Shown here: positions 7,944-50,145 of the stretch, piece by piece
Position numbering within the stretch: the first letter of the stretch is position 1
Layout of the letters: each line of letters begins with the position of its first letter
Position numbers and translations under genes: made by a program
Virus record (IMG/VR): IMGVR_UViG_3300022701_000176
DNA: 64,000 bases
Strand: one strand, 5' to 3'
Source of the DNA: a virus
Lineage: Duplodnaviria; Heunggongvirae; Uroviricota; Caudoviricetes
The notes under the pieces: generated by a model
The model's input: only the letters and a program-made list of their open reading frames with translations
The model's database searches: none
Told to the model about the DNA's origin: nothing

Positions 7944-8045
7944 GACAATTCCTCCTTATTATAAGATTAATGGTTAGTAGACCGTCCAACCTCCTCAGAC
8001 GATTCTACTTATTAATTAATATATATAATAAATGGTATACTATAT

Positions 8046-12482: not shown

Positions 12483-12510
12483 CACTATATATATATATTA
12501 ATAGATAATC
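12483..12510 (+). promoter_or_regulatory. conserved promoter motif
   Basis: cactatatatatatattaatagataatc lies 30 nt upstream of the RBS of 12542. Confidence 0.4.
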
Positions 12511-13259: not shown

Positions 13260-15230
13260 CTATTTCGTCAAAAGATTATAAATATCGTTTTCATCTCCAT
13301 CTCTGAACAAATCAAATGTATTATTCATTCCACCCTTCATATTCCCCATATTGGCCCTTATATAAGAATCCACTTTCTTTTTAAATGTATTAAACTCATT
13401 ATTCATATATTCATCCAATAATGGTGCACCAAACCCATTTAACCCACGTATCAGATCAGTTGCATCTTCAGTTGGTGAATTCATTTCATTATATGTGCTA
13501 TCAAAATTATCAAATGAATCTAATACATCCTTCCTATAATGCCTCACATAACATATAAAGCCCAAAGCCATTGCTAAATCGTCATGCAATCCAACATCAG
13601 CCTGTATCTTATTCCCTTTATCAACTAACCCACTTAATTCTAACGCTAATCTTTCTGATTTAACAATAGATGGATCTTCTATTATGTATTGATATAGAGA
13701 ATCGAGTATTAATGGTCTTGTTTTAACATTAGTAGATAGTCCTGGATAGAATTTCTTATGTCCTGTTTGTCCTCTCCACTCTCCATACATATTATACTCA
13801 TATGATTCATCTCGTAATATCTCTTCTATTACTTGATTGCCATAGCTGTTGTTTTCTATGATCAGGATGGAGCGTGGATACAGTTTAGCTATATATTTGA
13901 CTACAGTAGTAAAATCAAATACTGCCATTTTCCCTTTAAACTCAGCAATTTGTTTCATATCAACAAATCTAAACACTTCTATCGTACTCCAATCACCATC
14001 CCCCAATCCACTCCCCGTATCAACCCCAATTAATACTTTAGAATCTTTATCAGTATGAGTATATCTAATGAACTCACCACCCTGTTGCGTCCAGCCGCTC
14101 TCAAACCCTTCAGAATCGTTTTCAATGTTAACCCCTATCTTACCCCTTATCCAGCGTCTTTCAAGCGGTCTGACGTGTCTGGTGGTTTCTTGCAGCACTA
14201 CAATCACATCATCATCAAATAAATTATTACCAGATCCAACAAACTTCATCTCAAGTTCTTGATTTATCTTACGTTTATTATTCTGTAAGATTGCACACTG
14301 TTGATCATACCACTTTGGATCATTCTTGAATATCGGAATTTCAGACCAATGAATCTTATATGGTCTGAATGCAGAGAGAATAGCATCACCACCATCATCC
14401 ACATTGGTAGTCAATACTGCCGAATCGGTAGTCAATACTGCCGACTTAGACGATTTATCAGCTTCTTCATTTGTCCTTCCCTCCCCCTCCCCACTCTTAT
14501 CCTTTTTCCCACCTATTACATTAGAACTCTTAGATAAATTATTGTTACTATCCAACCACAGCTTGTAATACCACTTTCCTATTCCCTGCTGACCATTCGG
14601 AGTTGATAATACGATGGTTCCATAGGGAATTCCACGCTCTTTAGCCACTTGTTGGGCATATGATAGGGTTGAACCGAGTCCAGTCCACGCTTCATCGATT
14701 TTCATAATGTGTGCAGCTTCGTCAATTACTAGTAATCCGATAGATTTTGACCGAAAAACCGATCCTGGGTTAGACAAACTTACTGCTGTGGAGTGAAGTT
14801 GGCACCCATTTGTGGTACTAAAACTCTGAACGGACTTGTGTTTATACTGTGGTTTCAGATAGTTAGGGAGTTTGTCTACTATGTCTTCCACCTTCTTGCA
14901 AAAATCCGAGGATTCGGCGCCTGATCTACTCAGTACCCCGCTTACCAGGTTAGAATTAAAGGTACTGATATAAGCAATTATAAGTTGGCACAATGTACTA
15001 AAGCCGGTTTGTCTTGATTTGAGTAAAATCAAGTGATGATATTTAAAAAATGCACGAATGATTTCTTTTTGTGGTTCATAGAGTTTGGGTAATGTATCTC
15101 CACCAGCTAATGGTAGATAACAGCATTCTTCCATGAATTTAATTGGATTGTTTTTATATTCTAAATACTTAGTTGCATATTTTAATGCGCTTCTTGATAA
15201 TTTTTCAGTATTATCTTGTTGTATTTCCAT
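13260..15230 (-). CDS. terL: terminase large subunit
   Basis: ATPase signatures (LKSRQTGFSTL Walker A-like; LLVIDEAAHI Walker B) and a C-terminal nuclease-fold motif VLIGVDTGSGLGDGDWS. It carries an internal low-complexity S/K/E-rich insertion. Confidence 0.75.
   Translation of the reverse strand: MEIQQDNTEKLSRSALKYATKYLEYKNNPIKFMEECCYLPLAGGDTLPKLYEPQKEIIRAFFKYHHLILLKSRQTGFSTLCQLIIAYISTFNSNLVSGVLSRSGAESSDFCKKVEDIVDKLPNYLKPQYKHKSVQSFSTTNGCQLHSTAVSLSNPGSVFRSKSIGLLVIDEAAHIMKIDEAWTGLGSTLSYAQQVAKERGIPYGTIVLSTPNGQQGIGKWYYKLWLDSNNNLSKSSNVIGGKKDKSGEGEGRTNEEADKSSKSAVLTTDSAVLTTNVDDGGDAILSAFRPYKIHWSEIPIFKNDPKWYDQQCAILQNNKRKINQELEMKFVGSGNNLFDDDVIVVLQETTRHVRPLERRWIRGKIGVNIENDSEGFESGWTQQGGEFIRYTHTDKDSKVLIGVDTGSGLGDGDWSTIEVFRFVDMKQIAEFKGKMAVFDFTTVVKYIAKLYPRSILIIENNSYGNQVIEEILRDESYEYNMYGEWRGQTGHKKFYPGLSTNVKTRPLILDSLYQYIIEDPSIVKSERLALELSGLVDKGNKIQADVGLHDDLAMALGFICYVRHYRKDVLDSFDNFDSTYNEMNSPTEDATDLIRGLNGFGAPLLDEYMNNEFNTFKKKVDSYIRANMGNMKGGMNNTFDLFRDGDENDIYNLLTK
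14405..14443. repeat. in-frame tandem duplication (18-bp unit, 21-bp period) inside terL
   Basis: ggtagtcaatactgccga atc ggtagtcaatactgccga encodes SAVLTTD SAVLTTN in the terminase insertion. Confidence 0.8.
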
Positions 15231-19660: not shown

Positions 19661-19695
19661 ACAACCAATAACTCATTAACTTAAAAGGAGGAAGT

Positions 19696-19863
19696 TATGA
19701 ACATGAATGGATGGGCGAAATTCGGTATGGCGGTAGGTGCAGTTGTGGTTGCGAATATAGCGTGCGCCGCCGCAGCAGGGACGTGGAACATGGTGAAAAA
19801 CGCGGCCACTGCTGCTCGCGAGCAGCAGGAATCGATCGATGCGGCAAAGAAGGCGGCTAACTA
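19696..19863 (+). CDS. 55-aa Ala-rich hydrophobic peptide (GC-rich micro-gene, absent from the ORF track)
   Basis: ATG at 19696: MNMNGWAKFGMAVGAVVVANIACAAAAGTWNMVKNAATAAREQQESIDAAKKAAN. GC is far above that of the surrounding genome, with a strong promoter, RBS and terminator. The listed minus ORF 19676..19900 is its shadow. Confidence 0.5.
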
Positions 19864-19868
19864 ACCCC

Positions 19869-19938
19869 CAACCCCAACCTATCTCACTCTCAGCCGGCAT
19901 GCATCCCGCTTACGCCCAAGAGTGAGATAGGTTGGGGT
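19869..19938 (+). terminator. 21-bp perfect inverted-repeat hairpin
   Basis: AACCCCAACCTATCTCACTCT, a 28-nt loop, then AGAGTGAGATAGGTTGGGGTT. Confidence 0.5.
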
Positions 19939-20036
19939 TAACTTAAAGTTAAATTTTTTGTTCATGATTTTATTTTTTTCTATATATATTAAATTATAAC
20001 GAACAAAAATTTATTAACTATTTTAAAAGGAGAGTT

Positions 20037-21872: not shown

Positions 21873-21898
21873 ACCATTATAAATAAGGAGATATGGTT

Positions 21899-22204
21899 AT
21901 GATTAGTGGAAGACCATCGCATCCAGGACAAATATTAGTAGAATTTATCAATAATATTAAAGGGTTAACTGTTGATAAATTATCTGATGTCACCGAGATT
22001 GAAGAAAGATATTTATTGGAGTTAATGATTGAAAAAGAATCAATGACTCCATATGTGGCGCAGGTATTTTCCAGGGTATTTTCGACAACACCTTCTTATT
22101 GGATAGATCTTCAATCTAAACTCGATCTGTGGGAAAACCATGTTAAACATGAACAGTTTTTAAGTGGGTTAGAATCATTGGTTGATACAAATATAGAACA
22201 ATAA
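21899..22204 (+). CDS. HigA/VapI-family HTH (Xre-type) antitoxin-like protein
   Basis: HPGQILVEFI...GLTVDKLSDVTEIEERYLLELMIEKESMTPYVAQVFSRVFSTTPSYWIDLQ matches the HigA-family pattern HPGE.L.E....GLS...LA.......I..I..GKR..T...A..L...FG.S...W.NLQ. Confidence 0.5.
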   Translation: MISGRPSHPGQILVEFINNIKGLTVDKLSDVTEIEERYLLELMIEKESMTPYVAQVFSRVFSTTPSYWIDLQSKLDLWENHVKHEQFLSGLESLVDTNIEQ

Positions 22205-22290
22205 TATTTATTTAAAAATTGGCTAAATAATAATCACATAGATTAGAATATCATTTTAATCTATGTGATTATTTGAAAGGAGATATGGTT

Positions 22291-23733
22291 ATGTGTGGAA
22301 TAGGATGTGTTTGGTTCAGAGAAAGTGTTGATGTGGAAATTTTGGAAAAAATGCTGGAAGCAACTGAAAAAAGGGGAAAAGATGCATTTGGATATGCAAT
22401 AATACGATATGATAAAACTGAAGATGATTATGTTTTATTTGATATAAATCGATATGGTAAATCTTATAGTGAAATCAAACAAAATATCAATCTTTTTACA
22501 GTATTAAAAGTTGGAGATATAATTATATGGAATAATAGAGCAAAACCAATGACTGAATTTTCATCTGTAGATGGAGATGATAGAACAATTCAACCGATAT
22601 GGTACAGAGATGAAGGGATCATTATGGTTCATAATGGTGTTGTATCGAATGAAGATGAAAAATTTAAAAGAAGAACAAAAATAGATTCTGAATTTTTCAT
22701 TCATAGATATTTAAAAAATGGAAGAAATATTAAAAAGACAGCAGAAGAAATGATTGGTGGATCTGCTTATATATACGTTGATCTAAGAAGAGATATACTT
22801 GGTGTTGTAAGAGATTTCAGACCATTGGGGAAAGCATATAAGAAGGGTGTTGGTTATTTTGTAATGACTGATACTGATGAATTCTATAATGTCTTTGGTG
22901 ATATGGATGTGGCTATATGGGAAAATTTCTATTATAGCAATATACAACAATTTACTACAAATGAGGTAGATTTAAATTCTGGTCTAATTAACAGAAAAGA
23001 ATTTGAACCAAATTATATATCATCTCTTCCAGAACAAGATCCAAATAAAGTACTTGTAATGTCATCTGGTGGAGTTGATTCTTCTGTTGCTGCATGTGTT
23101 GCTGCAAAATTATTGAGAAAAGAAGTTACACTTGTTCACTTTGATATTAAACAAAAGAATAATCCAGGTGAAATTCGTGCAGTTAATTACTTAAGAGAAT
23201 TTCTAAGATGTAGACTCGATTATGTTGATTTACGATGGCTTGGATCATATGGAAAAAGTGTATTAACAGATAATCAATTAAAAGTTCCAAGTGGGTCAGT
23301 TAAATCAAATTTGAAAAATACAGTATGTTGGGTGCCAGCAAGAAATCTTATAATGTTATCATGTTTGATGGGTGTTGCTGAAGCTATAGGTGCAAGTGAA
23401 ATATATAATGGTTTTACTCAAGAAGAAGGCACGGTTTACAATGACAATTCAACATCATTTTTCAATGCAATGAATTATGTGTCTGATTTTGGTACTCTTA
23501 AACGACCAAAAGTAAAAACCATTCTTGGGAATCTGATGAAGCCAGAAGTTATTAAACTTGGATGGTATTTTGGATTAGATTTCAGTCAATTGTGGTCATG
23601 CGATACATATAATGAAAAAACTGGTAAAGAATGCGGTGAATGTGGTGCGTGTACGCTTAAGGCTTTAGCGTTAGAACATGCTAAACAATTAGACAGACCA
23701 CCAGAAGAAATAATAAATAGGTTGAAATATTGA
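22291..23733 (+). CDS. glutamine amidotransferase (class II, Ntn) - QueC fusion (7-deazaguanine pathway, Gat-QueC type)
   Basis: ATG at 22291 gives N-terminal Met-Cys (MCGIGC), as Ntn amidotransferases require, plus an HNGVVSN motif. The C-terminal half has the PP-loop VLVMSSGGVDSS, VPARN, and a terminal CGECGACTLK zinc motif as in QueC. Confidence 0.7.
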   Translation: MCGIGCVWFRESVDVEILEKMLEATEKRGKDAFGYAIIRYDKTEDDYVLFDINRYGKSYSEIKQNINLFTVLKVGDIIIWNNRAKPMTEFSSVDGDDRTIQPIWYRDEGIIMVHNGVVSNEDEKFKRRTKIDSEFFIHRYLKNGRNIKKTAEEMIGGSAYIYVDLRRDILGVVRDFRPLGKAYKKGVGYFVMTDTDEFYNVFGDMDVAIWENFYYSNIQQFTTNEVDLNSGLINRKEFEPNYISSLPEQDPNKVLVMSSGGVDSSVAACVAAKLLRKEVTLVHFDIKQKNNPGEIRAVNYLREFLRCRLDYVDLRWLGSYGKSVLTDNQLKVPSGSVKSNLKNTVCWVPARNLIMLSCLMGVAEAIGASEIYNGFTQEEGTVYNDNSTSFFNAMNYVSDFGTLKRPKVKTILGNLMKPEVIKLGWYFGLDFSQLWSCDTYNEKTGKECGECGACTLKALALEHAKQLDRPPEEIINRLKY

Positions 23734-23835
23734 AATGGGATTATTGGTAATTCACTGAAATGTACGATAAGATTTAATTATATATATTAATTAATAATCA
23801 ATAATCATTTAACCATATATAAAGGAGGAAATATT

Positions 23836-24066
23836 ATGGTTACGTCTAAAAGAGAGTCGTGGAATCAGGGTGGCGTTTTTCACGCCGCTTCCACGATTTC
23901 AATTGGTGGTTCCACAACATCTGGTTATGGGACCGCCGCCTCAATCAATGGCCGAGTATACGTACATGTATACTCGACTCCAACCAACAAAAATAGGCGG
24001 GAGTTCTATAACCGCCTTAACTCGGAATTGAGATGGGCGAGACAAATGACAACGCCCATCATGTAG
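23836..24066 (+). CDS. hypothetical small protein (GC-richer)
   Basis: Promoter motif at about 23781-23810 and RBS AAAGGAGGAA. Confidence 0.4.
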   Translation: MVTSKRESWNQGGVFHAASTISIGGSTTSGYGTAASINGRVYVHVYSTPTNKNRREFYNRLNSELRWARQMTTPIM

Positions 24067-24154
24067 CCAAAAAGCCATGCATACACTAAGCGAGTATCAT
24101 TCAAGTATGCATGGCTTTGCCCGATTTAATATTTTTTATCAAAAAGGAAATAAA

Positions 24155-24601
24155 ATGACTGATATAGAAACAAATGAAAAAATTGGATTTGATTTAGATG
24201 GTGTTATTTGTTTTGAACCAGCAGATCTGTGGCAGAAATTTGTATTTAATGCAGAAGATGGTGTAAAATATCGGCATGAACAACCCGTATGTTATAGACC
24301 AATGGTGAAGGGGCATATTATAACGGGTAGAAGAATTGACGATGAACAAATCACATATGATTGGTTATCTATGAATGATATTGAATTTATAAATGTTCAT
24401 TTTGGACTAAATCATTATATGCCTCAAATTCTTCTTCATAAAGCTGATATGATAGACCAACTCGATTTAGATATTTATGTCGAAAGTTGTAGTTATATCA
24501 CAATGTGTTTAATGAGAATGATCAATTCAAATTGCAGAATTGTATTGCCTGACAGTTCAATTGTAAGAAACTATTTAAAACTTGAATATAAATTATCGTA
24601 A
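24155..24601 (+). CDS. hypothetical protein with HAD-like DxDGV motif (possible nucleotidase)
   Basis: RBS AAAAAGGAAA, then MTDIETNEKIGFDLDGVICF. Functional assignment is weak. Confidence 0.3.
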   Translation: MTDIETNEKIGFDLDGVICFEPADLWQKFVFNAEDGVKYRHEQPVCYRPMVKGHIITGRRIDDEQITYDWLSMNDIEFINVHFGLNHYMPQILLHKADMIDQLDLDIYVESCSYITMCLMRMINSNCRIVLPDSSIVRNYLKLEYKLS

Positions 24602-24849: not shown

Positions 24850-24983
24850 AGTTTGCCCTTTATGTCATGTAAAAAAATCTTATTAAACGCTGTCATTTAA
24901 TAAGATTTTTTTATTAAAATTCACTATATATATATTAATAGATAACCAATAACCTATTTAATCCAAAAGGAAGGAGGGCGCAT

Positions 24984-25151
24984 ATGCCTTACCATAGGAG
25001 AGACGATATAAGTTGTTGGTCCTGTCGTAAAGACGGGACCAACGATTGCCCGAATGGTCATCATTCGGGCAATTATTTTAACGGGCAAGATTGGTGCCAC
25101 GCCTGGGCACCGATCCGCCGCGAAGAAACCCGGGAAGAGTCCGCCGAGTAG
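24984..25151 (+). CDS. 55-aa Cys/His-rich small protein (GC-rich micro-gene, absent from the ORF track)
   Basis: Promoter motif 24922-24948, RBS AAAAGGAAGGAGGG, then MPYHRRDDISCWSCRKDGTNDCPNGHHSGNYFNGQDWCHAW... The listed minus ORF 24954..25175 is its shadow. Confidence 0.45.
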   Translation: MPYHRRDDISCWSCRKDGTNDCPNGHHSGNYFNGQDWCHAWAPIRREETREESAE

Positions 25152-25157
25152 ACTCTT

Positions 25158-25207
25158 CCCACAACCCCCCATCAAGTCAGTATGATTGGTGGGGGTTTCT
25201 TTTTTTC
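25158..25207 (+). terminator. rho-independent terminator
   Basis: CCCACAACCCCCC, a loop, then GGTGGGGGTTT followed by a run of 9 T. Confidence 0.5.
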
Positions 25208-25268
25208 TATATATATTAAATTATAAGTATTTGAATTCGTTTTAATTTTTTATTTGAAAGGATATAAT

Positions 25269-25625
25269 ATGAGAATGTGGATGATTGATCCAAAGAAATT
25301 ATGTCGTAAACACTTACTTGGGGAGCATGGCGAAATACATAAACATCGTCATAATTTTGTTAAGCATCATCGTATCGATGGTAGACTATTACCCATAGTT
25401 CAAATACAACCAGCAGACATGAGTAAGAGACATGATGAACTGGCTGAAGAAATGTTAAGAAGGGGATATAATCATCAATCTCCTTATGACCAACCAGATA
25501 TTTCTTATTTGGCAGAATGGAAACAACAGTCGAAAGTTGATCTATTAATAAGTGAAAAAGACTTATGTAAACGATGTAAACAATGTAGAGAACTAATTAT
25601 GGGAGAGGAAAACAATGATAAATGA
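25269..25625 (+). CDS. pyrimidine-dimer DNA glycosylase (T4 endonuclease V / DenV-like)
   Basis: WMIDPKKLCRKHLLGEHGEIHK aligns with T4 EndoV [22 protein letters not shown], and RHDELAEEMLRRGYNH with RQIELIAECLKRGFNI. Confidence 0.5.
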   Translation: MRMWMIDPKKLCRKHLLGEHGEIHKHRHNFVKHHRIDGRLLPIVQIQPADMSKRHDELAEEMLRRGYNHQSPYDQPDISYLAEWKQQSKVDLLISEKDLCKRCKQCRELIMGEENNDK

Positions 25626-28286: not shown

Positions 28287-29333
28287 ATGAAAACAGAACA
28301 CAGTCTATATTATGGTCATTCAAAAGAGTTACTTAAATCAACAGCTTCAGATTGTGTTGATTTAATAGTAACATCTCCACCATATCCCATGATTAAAATG
28401 TGGGATGATATATTTATAGATCAAGAACCATTACTGAAACAATATTTAAATGATGGTTATGGTAAAGATGCATTTAATGCAATTCATAATAATATATTAA
28501 CTCCAATATGGATTGAATCATATAGAGTTCTTAAAGAAGGTGGTATATTATGTATAAATATAGGAAATGCAGTAAGAACATTAAATAGTAATTTTAGAAT
28601 GTATGATAATTGTTCAAGAATATCTAATACTTTGAATAATATGCGACTATTAGTTCAATTACCATCTATAATATGGAGAAAACCAACAAATTCACCAAAT
28701 AAATTCATGGGATCTGGAATGTTACCAGTTGGTGCATATATAACATTAGAGCATGAATTTGTATTGATATTTAGAAAAGGTGAGAAAAGAAAGTTTAATG
28801 GTGTAGAACAAGATATAAGACGAGAGAGTGCAATATTTTGGGAAGAAAGAAATAAATGGTTTTCAGATGTTTGGACTGATCTCCCTGGGATATCACAAGA
28901 TTTAAACAATAAAGAAACAAGAAAAAGAAGTGGTGCATATCCACTTGATTTACCATATCGATTGATAAATATGTTTTCTATAAAAGGAGATACTGTTCTT
29001 GATCCATTTCTTGGAACTGGTACAACTATGATTGCTGCTATGGCTTCAGAACGAAACAGTATTGGTTTAGAATTAGATAAAACTCTTGAACCAATAATAA
29101 ATATTTATATGAATAATTTGAAAAATATAAGTGATCTAATTATAAAAGAAAGATTGTTAAATCATAAAGCATTTGAAACACGTATGTCTAATGATAATAA
29201 AGAACTTAAATATAATAATAGATATCATGATACGCGAGTTGTATCAAAACATGAAAGATTTATTAAACTGAAGCATGTAAACAAAATAAATAAAAAAACA
29301 CCAACTAAATTTGAAGTAACATATGGTAAGTGA
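28287..29333 (+). CDS. DNA methyltransferase, beta-class amino-MTase (N4-cytosine or N6-adenine)
   Basis: Motif IV DLIVTSPPY is near the N-terminus and motif I LDPFLGTGTT near the C-terminus, a beta-class permutation. No adjacent endonuclease was recognised. Confidence 0.7.
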   Translation: MKTEHSLYYGHSKELLKSTASDCVDLIVTSPPYPMIKMWDDIFIDQEPLLKQYLNDGYGKDAFNAIHNNILTPIWIESYRVLKEGGILCINIGNAVRTLNSNFRMYDNCSRISNTLNNMRLLVQLPSIIWRKPTNSPNKFMGSGMLPVGAYITLEHEFVLIFRKGEKRKFNGVEQDIRRESAIFWEERNKWFSDVWTDLPGISQDLNNKETRKRSGAYPLDLPYRLINMFSIKGDTVLDPFLGTGTTMIAAMASERNSIGLELDKTLEPIINIYMNNLKNISDLIIKERLLNHKAFETRMSNDNKELKYNNRYHDTRVVSKHERFIKLKHVNKINKKTPTKFEVTYGK

Positions 29334-32911: not shown

Positions 32912-35506
32912 TTAAGATTTAAGATCTTCTTCATAGATGCCATCTGGTTTATTGGTAGATACAAATACATCACCCAATATATCTTTAGCGGCATCGATGT
33001 CTATATTTGATAATGCTTTGCGTACAACGTCTACTATGCTATCACCACCAAGAATACCACGTAACGATACATGTTTCGCCATATCTGTAGCAACATGTCG
33101 ATTTGAAATTGCTTGTATCACACCCATAAGTTCTGGTGATAATGCGCCGACTTGTTTGACAGCAGCAGCAGTTGCAATATTTATCAATTTTTCTCTCAGT
33201 TCTTGACGTATTGCTTCGTTACTTATTGCTTCAGCATTATTCTCTTTGGTTCTACTCAGTTCATGTTGAAAGATCACATCTTTAACTTTTTCAAGTTCAA
33301 TTCTGAAATCTTCATGTGCTTTCTGTTCAGTCTGCTGTGATTGAATATTGTGCATATTTAATTTCAATCTATTTTCAGATATTACCAATTGTTGATCAGT
33401 TTCTATATCACTAATATTCTTAGTTAATTCAGACTGTTGATTTTTCAACTGTTCTAATTGAGTAAGTTTATCATTCTTTTCTGTAATGAGTTTTATTTCA
33501 AACTCATTTGAAATGATATCAGTATTTAAATCATCTAATTGTCCGATAAATGAGCTATCTTCGAATCTTACTTTATTTATTTGGATAGCTTTTATTTCCA
33601 TATTATTATCATCAAATTTATTTCTTGCATCAGTTATGATTAGATCATTTAATATAGTAGTATAATTATAATACATATCTTCTGATGATGTTTCTAATAC
33701 TTTATTCTTGATTAATGATCTCATTTGTTCACAGAGAAAGAGAGGATAATTTGGAATGGAAAACCATTTAATTGGATCATCTCCAGTAAAGTTTACATGA
33801 TATCTTAATCTTATATTTACAATTTGACCATCAGAAGTTATACATTCAAATATGTCAGATATAAAATTATTCTTAATTTGGAGATAAACATCATTAACAA
33901 TATTATGTTCAGTTTTACATTTGCCAGTTGAAAATGTCAATATTTCTGGTAATTCATCAAATTTGAGATTATATGGTTTGTTTCCAACTACAACATGTCT
34001 ATCCCCACTCTCAGAAGCGATACACATGGCGTAGTTTTCAAATACACGAATATGAGGTGCACCAGAGAATTTGGTATCATCGAGTGATATCTCTCTTGGT
34101 TTCGTATATTTGACTTTACGTCGAATGGTTCTACCAAGATGTTCATCTGATATACCACCCTTTGATACTCCTCTTGTTCTAACTGAATCAGCAGATAAAT
34201 ATTGATCTTCTGTTCCAAGTTTATAATTTTTAAGAACTTCTGTGAATGAATCTTCGGATACCATTCCAGTATGTTGGTCTTTCGAAGATTTCCATAATTT
34301 CCTATTATATTCTATTACTTCATCATTTCCGGGATACAACAATTTTGCAGTTTTGATCGGAAGTGCTCTTCTTACAAACACTTCTTCGATGGGATTAAGA
34401 AGAGTGAGTGGTTTTGATTCATTTCTTATGTGTCCAGTTATTCTATCCATTACATATCGTTCGTGTCCAGGCTGAATAACTGTACCAAAATGAATCGGTT
34501 CACTATTTTCACCATATCTTATTATCGATTCATTTATATTTGGGAAATATATTCTTTGATCTGTAATGAATCTTTCATCTCCCATTTTATATTCAATACC
34601 ATTTTCATCAGTATATGATTCATTTACTTTTACATGAATACCTGCAACTGGTGGCAGTTCAAGAGCTTTATGAATGATATTTCCATTCTTGTCTGTTTCA
34701 AACTCTTCAGTTGGTTCAGGGACTACAATTACACCATTTGCATTCCCTTTTATGATTCGTGTCTTACCTGATTCATCTCTCAACATTACACATTGTATAG
34801 CTTCAAGACTTACGGCATTTCTTATATATTTATCGATACCATCATTATCATTATTCTTATATTCTGGATTTATTAATACTTGGAATCCATCATATGGAAT
34901 AAAGAACGGGAAATCAGAACCAGTTACATTAAATTTAACACCATTTTCAATATGATTTTCAAGTTTAAATTCTTCGTCTGGAATATCACGTTGAATAACT
35001 TTTTTGATGAAATATTGAATATTTTCATCTTCATATTTCAACGCTTTCAATGCTTGATCACGATCATATACTTCTATGACCAAGTAATTGTCGGTTCTCT
35101 GCTTATGACCTCTGATTCTCGTTGCAGATTGTCCGGGCCACAGTGGTTTATCGAATGGTCCACGAATGACAATTTTTTTACCAACCATTAATTTCATGTC
35201 AGCCGATCTACATTGAACTGAGTCTTTTTCTGGAGGGAATTCATCGTTTTCTGATGGATTTAGAAGCACAATATAGTATCCATTTGGAGCAACTATATTT
35301 TTAGTCATTGCTTCTCTGATAGATGCTTTTCTAAAATTTGTTCCATCTCCTGCTTTAGGGTCATATATAACCGGCACTTGACTTTTTTCAATTGTAACCT
35401 TCTTATCGCCTACAGTCATAGTTATAACTGCTGTAGATACATCCAATATACATAATGAAGATCCAAGAGGAACGGGAACTTCGCTGTTTTTGTAATCATC
35501 ATTCAT
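32912..35506 (-). CDS. large virion structural protein candidate (function unknown; C-terminal coiled coil)
   Basis: 864-aa ORF with its own terminator and a C-terminal heptad-rich region. No catalytic motif was recognised. Confidence 0.3.
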   Translation of the reverse strand: MNDDYKNSEVPVPLGSSLCILDVSTAVITMTVGDKKVTIEKSQVPVIYDPKAGDGTNFRKASIREAMTKNIVAPNGYYIVLLNPSENDEFPPEKDSVQCRSADMKLMVGKKIVIRGPFDKPLWPGQSATRIRGHKQRTDNYLVIEVYDRDQALKALKYEDENIQYFIKKVIQRDIPDEEFKLENHIENGVKFNVTGSDFPFFIPYDGFQVLINPEYKNNDNDGIDKYIRNAVSLEAIQCVMLRDESGKTRIIKGNANGVIVVPEPTEEFETDKNGNIIHKALELPPVAGIHVKVNESYTDENGIEYKMGDERFITDQRIYFPNINESIIRYGENSEPIHFGTVIQPGHERYVMDRITGHIRNESKPLTLLNPIEEVFVRRALPIKTAKLLYPGNDEVIEYNRKLWKSSKDQHTGMVSEDSFTEVLKNYKLGTEDQYLSADSVRTRGVSKGGISDEHLGRTIRRKVKYTKPREISLDDTKFSGAPHIRVFENYAMCIASESGDRHVVVGNKPYNLKFDELPEILTFSTGKCKTEHNIVNDVYLQIKNNFISDIFECITSDGQIVNIRLRYHVNFTGDDPIKWFSIPNYPLFLCEQMRSLIKNKVLETSSEDMYYNYTTILNDLIITDARNKFDDNNMEIKAIQINKVRFEDSSFIGQLDDLNTDIISNEFEIKLITEKNDKLTQLEQLKNQQSELTKNISDIETDQQLVISENRLKLNMHNIQSQQTEQKAHEDFRIELEKVKDVIFQHELSRTKENNAEAISNEAIRQELREKLINIATAAAVKQVGALSPELMGVIQAISNRHVATDMAKHVSLRGILGGDSIVDVVRKALSNIDIDAAKDILGDVFVSTNKPDGIYEEDLKS

Positions 35507-38554: not shown

Positions 38555-39994
38555 TTATTTCTCCATTGATTTCGTTATATGGATGGTTTTCGTATCACAA
38601 TCGCCAAGAGTTACATCCTGTCCTCTAAACATACTCCGTTCCGTGATAACCCATGTCATTGGGTACTCTTCCGTCCAATCATAATTATGATAAATCGATT
38701 CAACATCAGATTCGTAATCAGTTAAAAACAATACAGAACTGATCTCAATTTCTTCTGCCAAATCCTCTATACGAGAAAATGGTGGATCATGAGACGTTCC
38801 CCCTCTACCAGTAAATCTTCTTACCTTATCGAACACATCATTTGGTGATGGATCATCGAATAATTCAAATTCATCTTTAACTTTATGATCATGAATTATG
38901 AAGTATAATGATCTGAAATGATTTGCAGAATCACATGATATTCCTAAAAATCGTTTTAAATCATCGTCTGATATCGATGCAGAACAATCGATAACAATGA
39001 TTAACGATCTAACATCATCACCATCTATATATGATGGCAGATATGTTATATTGATATAGGGATTACGAATGGTCCAATCGGGTTCTTCATTTGAAGCAGA
39101 TTGGTATACAAGAGCATTTCTCAAGATCTCATCCCAAGGCAATTTAATCTCAAACAAGTCGTTTAACAATAACACGATATTGGCGGTCATATCACCTTTA
39201 CTTATCATGTCAGAATTCCACAACGCTTTTGCTTGAGATGCCAAGTCTTTTAATATTTCATAAGGCGACTTACCATCACCACTATCGCCATCATCATTAT
39301 CATCATCTTCTCCAGATTCAGATTTTCCATCGATTGCTTTTGAATCATTTGCAATAATCTGGCTTTTTCCATTTTTGTCGGTAATTTTTATTACTTTATA
39401 TTTATTACCGTCTTGATCAGTTATCTCTTCCTCCTTTGCTTTATTTCCATTTCCTAAATCGACTTCATTCCCGCATTCGCCTTTACAACTCTCATCACCA
39501 CATTTACATTCGGCTTGATTAATCATCATATCATATAGTTCTTCAGCCGATATGCCGGAATCTTTACTATGAACATCTTCCAGAAAGAAATGGTTGTCTG
39601 GAAGTTGCATATATCTCATTTGTCTAACTTCTCGATTTGTCACATGATCAATTGCTAAAGCCCAAATCATTGGAATCTTTCCAACACTTCTTTCTATATG
39701 ATTTGAAATAATATGAATTATTTCATGGACAATGATAGCAATTATATTTGATCTGTTGAACTGATCGGTTGCACCGAATACTATTCGTTTCCCATCAGTG
39801 TAGGCTAATCCAGTTACACCAACTACTGCTCTGGTATACGCCTGTAATTCTTTCATATTCATAACAACTTTATCCATACTCATGGATAAAATACCAAAGA
39901 ATTTAAGAGAATTTTTATTCAGCAGTATAATATTCGCTTCTGAAACGAGTTTTTCAAACTCTTTTAATGGTATTGGTTTATATTCAGTTGTCAT
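38555..39994 (-). CDS. von Willebrand factor A (vWA)-domain protein with N-terminal HExxH metallopeptidase-like domain
   Basis: N-terminal IIAIIVHEIIHIISNH (HExxH). C-terminal metal-ion-dependent adhesion site (MIDAS) motifs IIVIDCSASIS (DxSxS), TGRGGTSHD and LFLTDYESD. It overlaps the upstream AAA+ gene by 4 nt. Confidence 0.6.
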   Translation of the reverse strand: MTTEYKPIPLKEFEKLVSEANIILLNKNSLKFFGILSMSMDKVVMNMKELQAYTRAVVGVTGLAYTDGKRIVFGATDQFNRSNIIAIIVHEIIHIISNHIERSVGKIPMIWALAIDHVTNREVRQMRYMQLPDNHFFLEDVHSKDSGISAEELYDMMINQAECKCGDESCKGECGNEVDLGNGNKAKEEEITDQDGNKYKVIKITDKNGKSQIIANDSKAIDGKSESGEDDDNDDGDSGDGKSPYEILKDLASQAKALWNSDMISKGDMTANIVLLLNDLFEIKLPWDEILRNALVYQSASNEEPDWTIRNPYINITYLPSYIDGDDVRSLIIVIDCSASISDDDLKRFLGISCDSANHFRSLYFIIHDHKVKDEFELFDDPSPNDVFDKVRRFTGRGGTSHDPPFSRIEDLAEEIEISSVLFLTDYESDVESIYHNYDWTEEYPMTWVITERSMFRGQDVTLGDCDTKTIHITKSMEK

Positions 39995-41190
39995 TTTACT
40001 TCTCCCAATATCCCACTCGTCTTCATGAATTCTGCTAATTTTTTCAGCGGAAGAATATTCTTCGAAGCGAGTGTTTTTATAAGATCATGACCTTTTCCCT
40101 TGCCATGAACGTATTTTATCGAACAGATCATTAACTCTTTATTCGACTTATGAATCTTATTCAAAATATCTACGTAGATTTTTGAATAATATACTCTTTC
40201 TTTTTCATTATCTGTCGAATAATAGTGGGAATAATATGCATCAGTTACTGCATATATAAATGCAAATCGTTCAACTGATTTAACAGGAATATCAAACTGT
40301 CCTGTTGCAAAGATCGCTTTCGTATCAAACTGAGAATATATGTCTGTATAGATCTTGAACTTCGCTGCTGCTTCATGTCCAACGTATGCAGCATAAATGG
40401 AACTTTGCGTTGATCCAGACAATTTTTTCCACATATCTCTTTTCTGAAGAGCTTGAATCTTCGTTGAGAGATATGTCCAAGAACGAGGAGAGGGCCAGGG
40501 GTCAACCATTGATTCTTCACCCTGAAAGAATTCTCTATTTGACATATCTTCCAAAAACGAGATAATCGGACCATATACTTCATTTTTGAAAGCAAATTTA
40601 TCACGCCAATTCTTATACGATGGTTTGATATAATATTTGGCAACTCGGTTCATCACTGCACCGAATTGGGGTTTGGAGCCAGACAGTGCTTTATCATTGC
40701 CAGCAAGCATTATTAATGTGTCTGCCGGAAACCCTTTACCTCTAATTGTATAATCAGTAAATGCTTCGAATCCGACTGATTGAACTGATTTTGAGGCAAG
40801 ATGCCAATCATCGATTACAATCAAAACTGGTTTTTCTTTACTTAATTCTCTTGCTTCACATATAATATCTGGAATAGACCAGATTGTATGCATTTCTTTT
40901 CTCTTTCCTTCTTCCGATTCAATATGTAAAAAGTCGGGTATACCGCCCAACTCCTCAACTTTCAAGAATCCAGCATTTCGAACGATAAGATGGAAGTTTT
41001 GCTTTTTCGCAAGTTCACGAAGTGATTCAGTTTTACCGGAACCGGGAGGTCCAACGAAATAGTTGATTGCCATTTTTATTTCTGGGTTCTCGATCTTTTC
41101 TTTGTGATCGATAATAGCTATACTAATAGCTTCATGTAAATTAAGAACATGATCACTCATAACAGTACCACTTCTTCCATTTTCAGACAT
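39991..41190 (-). CDS. AAA+ ATPase (MoxR-like)
   Basis: Walker A FVGPPGSGKTESL and Walker B PVLIVIDDWH; translationally coupled to the vWA gene. Confidence 0.65.
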   Translation of the reverse strand: MSENGRSGTVMSDHVLNLHEAISIAIIDHKEKIENPEIKMAINYFVGPPGSGKTESLRELAKKQNFHLIVRNAGFLKVEELGGIPDFLHIESEEGKRKEMHTIWSIPDIICEARELSKEKPVLIVIDDWHLASKSVQSVGFEAFTDYTIRGKGFPADTLIMLAGNDKALSGSKPQFGAVMNRVAKYYIKPSYKNWRDKFAFKNEVYGPIISFLEDMSNREFFQGEESMVDPWPSPRSWTYLSTKIQALQKRDMWKKLSGSTQSSIYAAYVGHEAAAKFKIYTDIYSQFDTKAIFATGQFDIPVKSVERFAFIYAVTDAYYSHYYSTDNEKERVYYSKIYVDILNKIHKSNKELMICSIKYVHGKGKGHDLIKTLASKNILPLKKLAEFMKTSGILGEVK

Positions 41191-41202: not shown

Positions 41203-41949
41203 TTAAATTATTTGCTTAGAATGACAATGTATAGTCAACGTTTCTGCAAAAGGCCATATAAGATCTTTCCACACAAACGATTTGTCGATTTCATTATGAT
41301 CTATAAAATTAAGAGATGATTTATTTATTGTTATGACACTATCATCATATATAAGTGGCATTATCAATTTATCATTCTCTTCTTTTACAAACCATTCGAT
41401 TTTATCAGATGATAATACAACTCGTCTGATTGATTCTAATCCAAATAATATAGACTTCTTAGTTCCGAAATCTATATTTTTAAATAAATCGTAGAATGAA
41501 GTATCAATTGTTCTATTCTTTATACCTTTAACAACGACATCTCCATTCATACATATAGCCATATATGCCGATCTATCTATAGTTATTATTAACTTAGATA
41601 TTATATTTCTCAGTTCTATCGGCATAGTATTCTTTATATTTTTAATTTTTTTATTCGTAACTATTCCATCTTTTGTTCTTATAATTACATCATTTTCCGA
41701 TAGATCATTTGTTTTTATATAATATTCCATTATATATGATGTTACTTTGTTTATGTAAATATTTAATGTTGGATTATCTCTTTGTAATAGTCCAATTTGT
41801 ACAACTCTTGTATTTTTATCTTCATAATTTATACCATTAACGTCCCATCCGATGCTTCTTAGGATATTGTATCCACATGCTCTTACATCATATATGTACA
41901 AATTAGAATATATAAGTGGACCATCTTTTATTATTCTCATTTTAAACAC
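41203..41949 (-). CDS. hypothetical protein
   Basis: 248-aa ORF with no recognised motif. Confidence 0.4.
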   Translation of the reverse strand: MFKMRIIKDGPLIYSNLYIYDVRACGYNILRSIGWDVNGINYEDKNTRVVQIGLLQRDNPTLNIYINKVTSYIMEYYIKTNDLSENDVIIRTKDGIVTNKKIKNIKNTMPIELRNIISKLIITIDRSAYMAICMNGDVVVKGIKNRTIDTSFYDLFKNIDFGTKKSILFGLESIRRVVLSSDKIEWFVKEENDKLIMPLIYDDSVITINKSSLNFIDHNEIDKSFVWKDLIWPFAETLTIHCHSKQII

Positions 41950-42004: not shown

Positions 42005-42790
42005 TTAGCCATTTATGGCATATTGTTGATTGATTGGTCTGTATGATAATTTAGTAATTGTTGTCAATAGCTTTTTTACATAATTAACATCAACCGTCTC
42101 AATCAACGTTTCATTCATAACGTTTAATGCATCTTCTATGCTGATAACTTCGTCATTATCAACCATATTGCGATACTTTGCCCCTATTTTTCTAAACGTT
42201 ATTTTATGGATGTCTGTTAGATTATCGTTTAGTCTATTTGGTTCAAGATGATTATCTTTTCTAAATGACCAAACAACATTCTTTGTCGCTTTAGTTACTA
42301 TCATCTGATAAACACGATCACAAGTTACATCATTGGATCTTTCTATGAATGCAACTATCTTTTTTCCTTTCATCGGATCATATGGGATATATGCAAATAT
42401 TCCATTATCACCATAGTACTGTTTAATCATAAATCCATTATTATGAATCTTCGATTTAGTACTGGTGTATATGTATGTTATTGCATTTTTATTCATAACG
42501 AATGGTATTAATGTGTTGTTATCTGATAAAATCATTCTTGTCTTTTCTTTATTTGAAAATGTCAAATTATCTTTTATCAGTAATTGACCCGTTATATTTG
42601 AATTAATCCCGATACTTGTTAGATCTACTACTTCGAACTCGTTTATATTCTCACAAAACTCATGCCATTTTAAATTTCCCAATTTAAAATCTTGGGAATT
42701 CTGTGATTCAAAAACATTGGTTTGTATGAATTTTATGGATTCTTTATATTTATTTATATTTTTTCTTAATAAATCATAAACAGTAGTCAT
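42005..42790 (-). CDS. hypothetical protein
   Basis: 261-aa ORF with no recognised motif. Confidence 0.4.
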   Translation of the reverse strand: MTTVYDLLRKNINKYKESIKFIQTNVFESQNSQDFKLGNLKWHEFCENINEFEVVDLTSIGINSNITGQLLIKDNLTFSNKEKTRMILSDNNTLIPFVMNKNAITYIYTSTKSKIHNNGFMIKQYYGDNGIFAYIPYDPMKGKKIVAFIERSNDVTCDRVYQMIVTKATKNVVWSFRKDNHLEPNRLNDNLTDIHKITFRKIGAKYRNMVDNDEVISIEDALNVMNETLIETVDVNYVKKLLTTITKLSYRPINQQYAING

Positions 42791-42802
42791 ATAAATATCT
42801 CC

Positions 42803-43474
42803 TTATATCATAGTGAATTTTCTATTTACGTGAGTCGTAAACTCTTTATTCACATCGAGATTTTTCAAAAAGCTACCTCTCAACGCAATCATCGTAACAC
42901 CATCTGCATGTTCGCCCTGTTCAACTCCCCGTGCACACATACAGTTATGTATTGCTTCAGTAGCAACCCCTAATCCTTCTACGCTCAATTTATCAACCAT
43001 TAGGGATGCCAATATATTTGTAAAGTCTTCTTGAAGTATTGGTGCACGACCAATCATTTTTACAGTTTCTGATATTTTTGATAAACCAGGAACTTTACAT
43101 CGCTTTGGTATATCATGCTGTGTTGGAATATACCCAACCACCACTTTATATCTTACATCTTCGAAGTGATGAGGACACAGGGAGTGGATTCTAATTACTT
43201 GAGATACAATCATTCCATTAAATTGTGTTGGGAATGATTTAGTCTCTAATCCACTGTAATCAAGATTATGATAATCTATTCCAGAACATCGTTCCAATAC
43301 CATTGATTTTGCAATTCGGGTTGGGGTATCTCTGAAATTTTCATCAGATCTCCAATCGACATAAAATGCATCTAATATTGTATTCCATGCATCTTCAATC
43401 ATTGATATTTTAGTTTCATTATCATTATTTGATGGTTTAACGCTACCAAACTTAAATAGATTGTTTTCAGGCAT
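42803..43474 (-). CDS. folE: GTP cyclohydrolase I (FolE)
   Basis: RDTPTRIAKSM (TPxRxAK), SLCPHHFEDV (the CEHH-type zinc site) and HNCMCARGV (HxCMxMRGV). Confidence 0.75.
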   Translation of the reverse strand: MPENNLFKFGSVKPSNNDNETKISMIEDAWNTILDAFYVDWRSDENFRDTPTRIAKSMVLERCSGIDYHNLDYSGLETKSFPTQFNGMIVSQVIRIHSLCPHHFEDVRYKVVVGYIPTQHDIPKRCKVPGLSKISETVKMIGRAPILQEDFTNILASLMVDKLSVEGLGVATEAIHNCMCARGVEQGEHADGVTMIALRGSFLKNLDVNKEFTTHVNRKFTMI

Positions 43475-46489: not shown

Positions 46490-46765
46490 TCCTTTTTTTT
46501 AAAAAAGTACAATTTCGTTTATAAACTCTTTGAAATAATTTTTATCACATGACAATGTTATTAATTCACGACCAGCGCCATAAATCACTTCAAATGTCAT
46601 ATCATCTTTAGAACTATCATGTATTATCTTTAACTTAAGATAATTTGGTTTACCATCTTCAGATAATTGTCTTTCAACACTGAATTTGGTCTTTTTTTCT
46701 TTTTCAATAAAAACTTTATCAGGTATAATAAATCTCCTACTTATAATTTAATATATATATTCATA

Positions 46766-49700
46766 TTAATATTTAAATAATTCAGTCAGTGCTGATGAAT
46801 TATCAGATCTATTATTTATAAGACCTTCCAACAATTTAGCTTTCAAATTAGCAAACATAGCTCCAAGTAACCATGATGTTCGTGATGGTATCTGAAGAAT
46901 ACTCACGAATTCATAATCAACATCATTTCTGTTTGAAACTAATCTCCAAAGATCATTATCAACCCACATCATAGCAGATACAATTATTTCATAATGAACC
47001 ATATGTATATTTTTATATTCTCCGAATATACTATACATGAATTTGAGTAAATGTATTGGTTTACTTATATTCTCATCTCCATCTATTTGTTTTAATTTTG
47101 TTGGATTATGAAATAATTTATTTGCTATATTAATACCACTAATAATATCTTCATTGTGAGAACCACCATCATCTGAATCTTCATCACTTACTCTATTTAC
47201 AACACCGCTATTGTGAACAAATACACCAGAAGATACTGGAAAATTATGATATTCATTATCAACTTCTAAATCATAAAATTCTTCTTCTTTATCTAATTCT
47301 ATAAATTCTATATTATTAACTTTATGATTGTATCCGCATGGGATGTCATGGTTTGGATCGGGGATAGGAGCATAATCATTATATAATTTATTTCTAAGAT
47401 AATCTGGCGACCACTTGAGAAGATGTTCTCTATCATGTATTTTTCGACCATACATTTCTTTATTAATTTTATCAAATTGACTCAAACATAATCTAATATT
47501 GTTATCTTTCATATGTTGAAGTATTTTATCCATCATTGTTTCTGCAATACGTTGTTGTTTTGATCGATTATCTTCAACTCGATCATCAACAAGATGAGAC
47601 AGAAAATCTGGAGAATGTTTAAGAAGACCTTCTATCGTCTTCCTACTTAACGCTTTTGGATAAACAATTTCATTAGCTTTATCAAATGATGTATAAGTAA
47701 GAGGCATATCGAGTTCTTCCATCTTAGCAAGAACTTTTTTCATACGAGATTCACATTGAAGTTGTTGTCTCGATTTACCAGTTACTTTCCCTTTACTGTC
47801 ACTACTCACTATTCGTCTTTCACCACCAACTGGTTCGAGATGATTAAGATAATCTGGTGATAATTCTAACATCTTTTCTCTATGATGTGTTTTATCACCA
47901 TATATTTCTCTATTTGATTTATCAAAACTACCATATGTCATTGGAAGATTATTTTCTTCCATGTGTTTAAGAACTCTATCCATTCGTGATTCAGCATGAA
48001 GTTGTTGACGAGGTTTTTTAACTATATCATCAATAAATCCAATCATTAAATCTTCATGATCTTTTATTGCATATTTATATGTTGGATATCTTAATCCAGC
48101 AGATTTAAAATATTTTTCTCGAATCATATTAAAGTTCGTAGATGTTTTTTCTAACTTAAGATCAGATATTAATTTTAATATGTTTTCAATACATGTACGC
48201 CTTACTTTAATTGATATTTGTTTACTTTTTTCAGGATTATCAATGTGCCATTGTTTACGTGTTTCTGATGCTTTTATTCTTGCATCCTCTCCATGCATTT
48301 TTATATGTTCATCTGCATCTATTATTTGTATATTTGTAGGATAATCATTTTTAATATCATTATCGATATGATGTCTATGTATATTATTAGTTTTATTTAT
48401 TTTCTCACAATCTGAGTGGTCTGATGATAAATGGAATATTAAATCTCTCCTATAACCATTTGCTTTTGGTTCTTTATAATTTTGTTGAATTCTTCTTCTT
48501 CCCTCCATTCTACTACTAAGTGTACCATATTCTAATAGATAACAAGGCATTAAAGAATCCCATTTCTTTAAATCTTTTGCTTTCTTATATGTACCATTAC
48601 GCATCATCATTTCATGATCAGGTGTAACTTTTATTATTTTCTTATTGTCTAAAGTTATTTTTACCATCTTATTCGTTATATGATCTTTAAACACATTCAA
48701 TACTTTAGATACAACTATTTTTCCATCTGGTGAACATGAAAAAGTATAAATATCTTCACTATTAATATTTATACGTTCATATAATTCATCCATTCGTATA
48801 TGATTATTGTTTACATCTATTATACAAGTGTCGCGTGAAAGGCTTTCATGGAAGGTACGCAGTACAAGCTGCACGAGTCTCTCCCCGATTGAGTGAACAG
48901 CCATTATACCAATTTCATCGCTATGAAGTATTTTATGAAGATTACCATAACAAGTTTTACATATTTTTTCAGATTCACAATAAATTGGAGATCTTAGTTT
49001 TATATTTTTTCCAATTATATCATTTATGTTCGAAGTTCTAATTGGAATAACATTACCATTATCATCCACATAATTTCTCCAGAGTAGAACTCTTGCCATC
49101 TTTTTATCTCGTACATATATCTCCAAATAATCTTTAGTACAACAATCAATTTTATTGTGATCTATTTGATAATTAATACAACTGTATATTAATTGACGTG
49201 TTAAATATCCAGAATCACCAGTTGATAATGCTGTATCCAATAATCCCTTTCTTGCACCATAACACGATTCAAAAAATTCTTTCTGATTCAACCCTTCCAC
49301 CATACTACTTCGAATCAGATCTGGCCTAATATTTCCTTTTGAATCTGATACATAGCCCCTTGTGAATACAAGTTGCTTTGCTTGTTTCCATGAACCTCTC
49401 GCCCCCGACTTTATATACTGTGAGAATGGTAAACTATCTAATAATTCATGTACTTCTTCTGAATTTTCGATAATATTCATATCATCTACAATATTACCAG
49501 TTAATTCTTTATTCTTCTTCAATAATTCTTCTTTGAATATATCATCTAATCCAAGTGTATATCCTCGAATAGTTGACAATGAAAAACCAAGATTTTTAAT
49601 TTTATCCAGTGTTTTTATAACTTTAGATGGTGGATATGATAATACAATTTTATTTAATAAATTAAGTAATTTTCTCTTATCAATAACATCATCTATAATT

Positions 49701-50128: not shown

Positions 50129-50145
50129 TATAATTTTTTCCTTTT

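Follow-up and report, generated by a model that had tools for sequence, protein, structure and literature searches.

A 64,000-nucleotide stretch of viral DNA (IMG/VR record IMGVR_UViG_3300022701_000176; the whole 64-kb stretch is called the window here) carries a gene in which a glutamine amidotransferase domain is fused to a QueC domain. We conclude, with a probability of about 0.6, that this Gat-QueC serves DNA modification in the phage. It would carry out a single step of the pathway by which a novel tailed phage of ~200 kb would modify its DNA with 7-deazaguanine. The pathway genes would be dispersed, with Gat-QueC and a small HAD phosphatase like that of polynucleotide kinase-phosphatase (PNKP) at 22.3-24.6 kb and FolE at 42.8 kb, while the genes for QueD, QueE and a DNA transglycosylase would lie beyond the window, supply by the host being less likely. 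The base would be routed to the phage DNA by a DpdA-like transglycosylase elsewhere in the genome, as the gene context of the clade suggests. 7-Deazaguanine bases make phage DNA resistant to restriction enzymes and Cas9, and each new lineage widens the map of their carriers. With this locus, Gat-QueC is placed in a tailed phage of ~200 kb that had not been sampled before and that has its own multisubunit RNA polymerase.

We are highly confident that the gene belongs to the Gat-QueC family and that its glutaminase and QueC motifs are intact. In Pfam, the QueC profile was matched over positions 1-209 of 210 by amino acids (aa) 253-464 (2.4e-41, 142 bits). The N-terminal half matched GATase_6 above its cut-off (1.7e-6, 28.5 bits against 27 bits) and GATase_7 at 4.2e-5. 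The phage Gat-QueC family PHROG 10428, which carries the annotation 'L-glutamine-D-fructose-6-phosphate aminotransferase', covered aa 16-462 (6.7e-38). Sequence matches to QueC proteins in the PDB were also obtained (3bl5, 6.3e-14; 2pg3, 1.8e-13), and phmmer matched the protein to the Gat-QueC of phage 9g at 5.4e-33. The fusion claimed at this place by the original prediction was borne out by Pfam, NCBIfam, PHROG, the motifs and the predicted fold.

The motifs were examined in an alignment of the window protein, 13 clade members and the 9g enzyme. In the glutaminase domain, the invariant or near-invariant positions were Cys2, R28-G29, N81-x-RA-x-P-x-TE89 (N81/R83/E89), Q101-P102, H114-N-G116 and D132-S133; in the QueC domain, they were S259-GG-x-DS264, W347-x-PARN352 and C437/C448-x2-C451-x2-C454 (C-x10-C-x2-C-x2-C). 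In the window protein itself, the glutaminase motifs read R28-G29, N81-x-R-A-x-P-x-T-E89, Q101-P102 and D132-S-E134, and the HNG motif continues to N120. The Met-Cys, HNGxxxN, SGGVDS, PARN and Cys-cluster motifs named earlier from the sequence were all present, and invariant or nearly so in 15 homologues. A Cys directly after Met, the class-II amidotransferase motifs, a complete QueC domain and full-length similarity to phage Gat-QueC were all found in the one protein.

The open reading frame (ORF) offers three in-frame start candidates, ATG 22285, TTG 22273 and ATG 22291. The last is followed directly by TGT (22291-22296), giving the Met-Cys N-terminus, and MCG(I/L)G is the N-terminus of every Gat-QueC homologue aligned. 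The Met-Cys start was preferred over the other two because the Shine-Dalgarno sequence AAGGAG lies 9 nt upstream of it. ATG 22291 is the credible start given this spacing, the Met-Cys required of an N-terminal nucleophile (Ntn) enzyme and the exact match to the recorded protein P0001 (480 aa), which is identical to the window product. The stretch 21893-22271, directly 5' of the gene, holds a homologue of a HigA-like helix-turn-helix antitoxin (phrog_1381, 5.6e-14). A perfect 13-bp inverted repeat (~22233-22271) was seen 3' of the HigA-like gene, just before the Gat-QueC ribosome-binding site. Coordinates of the main features are collected in the table.

Table. Features of the Gat-QueC gene and its product, further genes of the window, and the radical SAM/SPASM genes at loci of relatives (positions within each locus)
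Feature	Position	Strand	Remark
Gat-QueC coding sequence	22291..23733	+	480 aa, stop codon included, uninterrupted ORF
Shine-Dalgarno AAGGAG	22276..22281	+	9 nt 5' of Gat-QueC ATG 22291
Class-II (Ntn) glutamine amidotransferase domain, N-terminal	22291..23025	+	~aa 1-245
Catalytic Cys2	22294-22296	+	Ntn nucleophile after initiator Met
H114-N-G116 of glutaminase domain	22630-22638	+	conserved alignment columns
QueC domain (PP-loop ATP pyrophosphatase), C-terminal	23038..23685	+	~aa 250-465
PP-loop SGGVDS (S259-S264)	23065-23082	+	QueC domain
W-x-PARN motif	aa 347-352		QueC domain, W347-x-P-A-R-N352
Zn-type Cys cluster C437/C448/C451/C454	23599-23652	+	QueC domain
Small HAD-type phosphatase-like gene	24155..24601	+	148 aa from ATG 24155; ORF opens 24077
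FolE (GTP cyclohydrolase I)	42803..43474	-	223 aa; Pfam GTP_cyclohydroI 4e-29
Radical SAM/SPASM gene, L001	7516-8541		
Radical SAM/SPASM gene, L002	13191-14135		
Radical SAM/SPASM gene, L004	8920-9972		
Radical SAM/SPASM gene, L008	4472-5434		
Radical SAM/SPASM gene, L009	7595-8758		
Radical SAM/SPASM gene, L011	7507-8607		
Radical SAM/SPASM gene, L013	6894-7922		

An AlphaFold2 model of the window protein, built from 15 clade sequences, had a predicted local distance difference test (pLDDT) score of 89.1 and a predicted template-modelling (pTM) score of 0.79. When it was compared with predicted viral structures, the sole outstanding full-length match was the Gat-QueC of Pantoea phage Vid5 (A0A2P1CKL5, annotated '7-cyano-7-deazaguanine synthase'), with E 3.8e-33, template-modelling (TM) scores of 0.79/0.78 and 23% identity over 514 aligned columns. 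Vid5 is described as having an archaeosine gene cluster (PMC6266253). The N-terminal half was superposed on the glutaminase domain of GlmS (1xff, TMt 0.65) and on EgtC (TMt ~0.7). The C-terminal half was superposed on the QueC structures 3bl5 (TMt 0.82, 28% identity) and 2pg3 (TMt 0.76), with 25-28% identity overall.

In a Foldseek search of the PDB with the whole chain, the best E-values went to asparagine synthetases and GlmS, proteins with an Ntn glutaminase plus a second domain. With this two-domain architecture in common and a weak NCBIfam match to asn_synth_AEB (1.2e-7), the protein might be read as an enzyme outside deazaguanine metabolism, an Ntn-amidotransferase/PP-loop amidoligase, of the asparagine-synthetase type or another, whose substrate would be some unrelated carboxylate. 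Superposed over the whole chain, however, the asparagine synthetases reached TM scores of only 0.33-0.36 with a root-mean-square deviation of 13-15 Å and 13-16% identity. The Pfam Asn_synthase profile (PF00733) matched only the PP-loop at aa 254-290 and missed its cut-off (0.033, 14.3 bits against 21 bits), far from the 142 bits obtained with QueC. The QueC-type C-x10-C-x2-C-x2-C cluster is conserved, and the neighbourhoods of the relatives are deazaguanine clusters. We regard such an amidoligase as very improbable, and the view that the C-terminal domain stands nearer to QueC than to asparagine synthetase B held in both profile and fold.

In a large protein database, only 18 clusters were related to the query at E<=1e-5, with 28-62% identity. 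By tblastn, 26-29% identity over 80-95% of the length was found to 9g, BRET, Vid5, PaMx25 and others. When 185,579 genomes representing species (GTDB) were scanned with a pattern, no clade member was returned, only PP-loop fragments. The window Gat-QueC is a distant member of a known family, in a small clade known only from metagenomes.

Gene neighbourhoods were compared by local phmmer and blastp at nine independent relatives found through Gat-QueC (L001, L002, L004, L007, L008, L009, L011, L013 and L015) and at two more loci found through the radical SAM gene discussed below (L017 and L018). Within 10 kb of Gat-QueC, queE was present in six of the nine relatives, folE in five and queD in four. 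Genes resembling tRNA-guanine transglycosylase (TGT) are located within or beside the cluster in three lineages. The one at L004 matched Pfam TGT at 1e-3 and has the DSGGFQ motif; a protein search with it gave 6 matches, and its homologues P0023 and P0024 carry PF01702. The one at L011 matched phrog_887 'queuine tRNA-ribosyltransferase' at 1.7e-14, and the third is at L017. Since the clade is embedded in clusters of the deazaguanine-DNA type, these neighbourhoods support the general idea of a 7-deazaguanine link, and the connection to DNA modification proposed in the original prediction is plausible in the light of the queD-queE-folE clusters and the TGT-like genes. In the homologues P0003 and P0008, an intein was seen inside the QueC domain, between the EEEG and (S)YPDN motifs (window residues 378-386).

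The chemistry assigned to the fusion in the original prediction has to be revised. It had been taken as the enzyme converting 7-cyano-7-deazaguanine (preQ0) to 7-amido-7-deazaguanine (ADG), a claim that was not upheld because the literature ties Gat-QueC to another product. Together with DpdA1, Gat-QueC leads to the 7-formamidino derivative 2'-deoxyarchaeosine (dG+) (PMC6884629; PMC10516641), whereas ADG is attributed to the QueC* of Campylobacter phage CP220 and to the bacterial DpdC (PMC10516641). Expression of 9g gat-queC and dpdA produced dG+ in E. coli DNA at up to ~18% of G, and dG+ was also obtained in a queC deletion strain (PMC6884629). By analogy, the window enzyme would act in three steps. 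The glutaminase, with Cys2 exposed as the Ntn nucleophile once Met is removed, would free ammonia from glutamine and hand it to the QueC active site. There, 7-carboxy-7-deazaguanine (CDG) would be activated by ATP and converted via the amide (ADG) to the nitrile preQ0. Addition of a second ammonia to this nitrile would then yield the archaeosine base, G+, a formamidine. The expected end product, judged from the characterised systems, would be dG+ or dPreQ0 and not dADG, and this is the lesson for annotation of Gat-QueC genes.

The only other pathway gene seen in the window was folE, confirmed by Pfam at the non-adjacent position where it had been noted. Its product, GTP cyclohydrolase I, catalyzes the first step of the preQ0 pathway. 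The gene is encoded 19 kb from Gat-QueC on the other strand, where it comes immediately after the RNA polymerase beta gene, and its product matched the FolE of phage 9g (phmmer, 1.5e-13) and of the L004 cluster (blastp, 1e-26). The remaining pathway genes were searched for in several ways. All 80 ORFs called in the window were scanned against Pfam, and none had a domain match to TGT, DUF6610, PTPS or Radical_SAM. Searches of all six-frame window ORFs by phmmer gave no match with DpdA1, QueD and QueE of 9g or with DpdA3, DpdL, QueD and QueE of phiST; tblastn with phiST DpdA3 returned too few homologues for a useful profile. A hidden Markov model (HMM) of the L004-type TGT-like family had no match in the window, and the DSGGFQ motif was absent from it. 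Comparison by hhalign for DpdA/TGT, QueD, QueE, QueC-like and radical SAM proteins in the window gave a best probability of 1.4%. Pfam, phmmer, custom HMMs and hhalign likewise revealed neither a stand-alone QueC gene nor a radical SAM gene in the window. The earlier statement that DpdA, QueD and QueE are not recognisable in the window is thus confirmed.

Several of these results weigh against a role in DNA modification. No DpdA of any described type was detectable within the window, and neither were QueD and QueE. DpdA (DpdA1-4) has been argued to be present in every phage with deazaguanine DNA and is treated as the signature of DNA modification (PMC10516641); the DNA role is therefore unproven for this genome, and without a DpdA in hand DNA modification is a hypothesis. 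The protein is only 23-27% identical to the characterised Gat-QueC proteins (9g/Vid5-type). With NCBIfam QueC TIGR00364 it scored below the equivalog cut-off (4e-36, 124.5 bits against 150.3), as it did with NF008317 (61.9 against 378 bits); judged by its sequence, it is related to QueC yet no orthodox QueC. A separate QueC-like gene, furthermore, accompanies the fusion in nearly all relatives. The rule drawn from 9g, that Gat-QueC replaces QueC, does not fit the clade because the relatives carry both. The absence of DpdA, QueD and QueE, however, holds for the window only, because roughly two thirds of the genome are not included in it: the longest contig carrying P0001 is 201,166 bp, which leaves ~137 kb outside.

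The lack of a detected DpdA in 64 kb and the presence of FolE as the only other pathway gene would also suit an enzyme of base or tRNA metabolism. The same protein would then be a glutamine-dependent preQ0 synthase working with FolE, by which the host supply of preQ0 or queuosine would be boosted or redirected with none going into DNA. Some phages have indeed been listed with QueC or preQ0-pathway genes but without any DpdA (PMC6884629). After the discovery of DpdA3 and DpdA4, however, DpdA was found in all examined phages having 7-deazaguanine synthesis genes (PMC10516641), and an E. coli strain deleted for queC did not regain queuosine in its tRNA when given the Gat-QueC of 9g (PMC6884629). 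The TGT-like genes adjoining the cluster in three lineages of the clade and the two thirds of the genome outside the window also speak against this role, which we consider unlikely.

The partners found beside Gat-QueC in the relatives raise the question of whether the pathway ends at a known base. A divergent stand-alone QueC-like gene was present within 10 kb of the fusion in seven of the nine relatives. A radical SAM/SPASM protein of 314-387 aa, which is not QueE, was encoded within the same distance in eight of the nine; its family has CxxxCxxC and C-terminal Cys motifs and only weak, sub-threshold NCBIfam matches. No counterpart of it was found in published deazaguanine pathways, and none was detected in the window. 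Methyltransferase, glycosyltransferase and sulfotransferase-like genes were located inside some clusters of the relatives. A phosphoribosyltransferase in the relatives had suggested a toyocamycin-like nucleotide route, an idea that was weakened when the L007 copy proved to be an ordinary orotate phosphoribosyltransferase (130.8 bits, above the cut-off); no phosphoribosyltransferase was found in the window.

The third partner is a small HAD-type phosphatase-like gene, which follows Gat-QueC in the window, separated from it by a short GC-rich unit. Its product has the HAD-like motifs D13-x-D15-G-V, I-I-T57-G-R59, K96 and E110, and matched a protein encoded at L002 11404-11814 (blastp, 4e-26). 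A HAD-like gene (135-173 aa) is located directly 3' of Gat-QueC in L002, L007 and L008, and less than 1 kb away in L001. The L002 copy matched phrog_415 (polynucleotide kinase) and phrog_8630 (nucleotidase), and the family profile matched the phosphatase domain of Pnkp1, a polynucleotide kinase-phosphatase (PDB 4xrp, E=2e-4). The family is very small: in 1.84 billion proteins, a cut-off of E<=1e-3 gave only 35 cluster representatives. AlphaFold2 without an alignment gave an unusable model of the window HAD-like protein (pLDDT 32.5). In the published deazaguanine pathways that we found, no HAD-like phosphatase takes part, and such a partner hints at a phosphorylated or nucleotide-level intermediate.

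From these partners, it is conceivable that an undescribed, hypermodified deazaguanine is built by the fusion together with a second QueC-like ligase, the radical SAM/SPASM protein and the PNKP-type HAD phosphatase. The pathway would then be scattered across the jumbo phage genome to which the window belongs, with only two parts of it in the window and a transglycosylase perhaps too divergent to be recognised. The recurrence of partners lacking a counterpart in the published pathways, the methyltransferase, glycosyltransferase and sulfotransferase-like genes within some clusters and the HAD-like gene directly after Gat-QueC in the closest relatives, as it also follows in the window, are consistent with this. 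On the other hand, the radical SAM gene and the second QueC-like gene were not found in the window, and a metagenome-contig scan with the radical SAM alignment returned three loci, the home contig not among them, which is not proof of absence. Co-occurrence, moreover, is not chemistry, and the motifs of this Gat-QueC do not differ from those of the dG+ enzymes. We hold such a derivative to be rather unlikely. The combination of the fusion, a QueC-like gene and a radical SAM/SPASM protein, joined in the closest relatives by a tiny HAD phosphatase, nevertheless points to possible unexplored chemistry.

Two short GC-rich islands flank the HAD-like gene of the window (23779-24130 and 24927-25200; ~45-46% GC against ~30% overall). 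Each contains a TATATATATTAAT motif, a strong Shine-Dalgarno sequence, a small ORF and a terminal hairpin; the ORFs are at 23836-24066 (76 aa) and 24984-25151 (55 aa, Cys/His-rich). No tRNA or Rfam match was obtained for these islands, and a third GC-rich island was seen at 19661-19970. The motif TATATATATTAA(T/A) occurs at 32 sites in the window with at most one mismatch, against 3.9 expected. Examples are 8015-8027(-), 12490-12502(+), 19981-19993(+), 23779-23791(+), 24927-24939(+), 25208-25220(+) and 46747-46759(-). By eye, the sites are mostly between ORFs and oriented toward the downstream gene, and none is directly upstream of Gat-QueC. The motif could be a promoter of the phage, perhaps one read by its own RNA polymerase.

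The window is tailed-phage DNA, as shown by a T4-like large terminase (TerL, 13260..15230, ~26% identical to many myoviruses), a multisubunit RNA polymerase and FolE. It contains a bacterial-type RNA polymerase beta gene, a split beta' gene and a class-3 lipase gene, and has a GC content of ~30%. Megablast of 20-28 kb against GenBank phages gave no match, and neither tRNAs nor Rfam families were detected in the window. The split beta' gene occupies 46766-52843 (-): its first ORF (51245-52843) stops a little beyond NADFDGD, the halves are separated by a DUF7487 ORF (50146-51258), and the second ORF (46766-50128) contains an intein (Pfam Intein_splicing 2.4e-17).

Downstream of Gat-QueC, a T4 endonuclease V-like (DenV-like) pyrimidine-dimer glycosylase (25269-25625, +; Pyr_excise 4.7e-11) and an N6/N4 DNA methyltransferase (28287-29333, +; 1.6e-36) are encoded. 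Because both lie less than 6 kb from it, this stretch is enriched in DNA-acting genes. Further genes were noted on the minus strand. An AAA ATPase (39991-41190) is paired with a DUF2201 metallopeptidase/VWA-like protein (38555-39994); the pair is preceded by FolE and two ORFs without an assignment (41203-41940 and 42005-42790). A 'shoulder' domain of the major vault protein (Pfam MVP_shoulder 2.5e-10) was seen in an 864-aa ORF (32912-35506). Two ThiF/E1-like ORFs (57475-58089, Pfam ThiF 8.7e-7; 58806-59819, 2.8e-15) enclose an ORF (58149-58772) with a JAMM-like H-x-H...S-x-x-D motif recognised by eye, and from these motifs the region 57475-59819 (-) resembles a ubiquitin-like activation/deconjugation module.

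Among known systems, asparagine synthetase B, beta-lactam synthetase and carbapenam synthetase have an analogous design, in which an Ntn glutaminase feeds a PP-loop adenylating domain. They gave the top E-values among whole-chain PDB matches, but at TM scores of only 0.27-0.36 and 13-17% identity, and their synthetase domain is of a different PP-loop family. The defence QueC-like protein Cap9 of the cyclic-oligonucleotide-based anti-phage signalling system (CBASS) matched in fold (9nto_B, TMt 0.80), but Cap9 and QatC have no glutaminase domain; weak QatC matches concern the stand-alone QueC-like genes of the relatives, not the window protein. Stand-alone QueC (3bl5, 2pg3; 7-cyano-7-deazaguanine synthase) is spanned over its full length by the C-terminal domain of the window protein, including the PP-loop and the Zn cysteines. 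It works with free ammonia and lacks a glutaminase domain, and the window protein stays below the QueC equivalog cut-offs. The ADG formers QueC* (CP220) and DpdC are set apart from the window Gat-QueC by their published product assignment only.

The archaeal Gat-QueC, likened here by its published description only, has the same fusion and the same proposed chemistry, in which ammonia from glutamine is added onto a nitrile (PMC6884629; PMC10516641). Amidation of preQ0 in tRNA is performed by it or, interchangeably, by two further archaeosine synthases, ArcS and QueF-L (PMC6884629; PMC10516641), and the phage and archaeal proteins share one sequence-similarity cluster (PMC6884629). The archaeal enzyme differs in that it works on tRNA, after arcTGT.

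The Gat-QueC of Enterobacteria phage 9g (Nonagvirus) and Pantoea phage Vid5, which belongs to the DpdA1-linked dG+ pathway, resembles the window protein end to end in its two-domain layout, at an identity of only 23-29%. The Cys after Met, HNG...N, SGGxDS, PARN and the four-Cys cluster are common to them. In 9g, the fusion replaces QueC in a compact folE-queD-gatqueC-queE-dpdA cluster, whereas the 64 kb of the window contain no such cluster. Unlike 9g, the relatives of the window clade encode, beside the fusion, a QueC-like protein apart from it, an additional radical SAM/SPASM protein and a HAD-type phosphatase.

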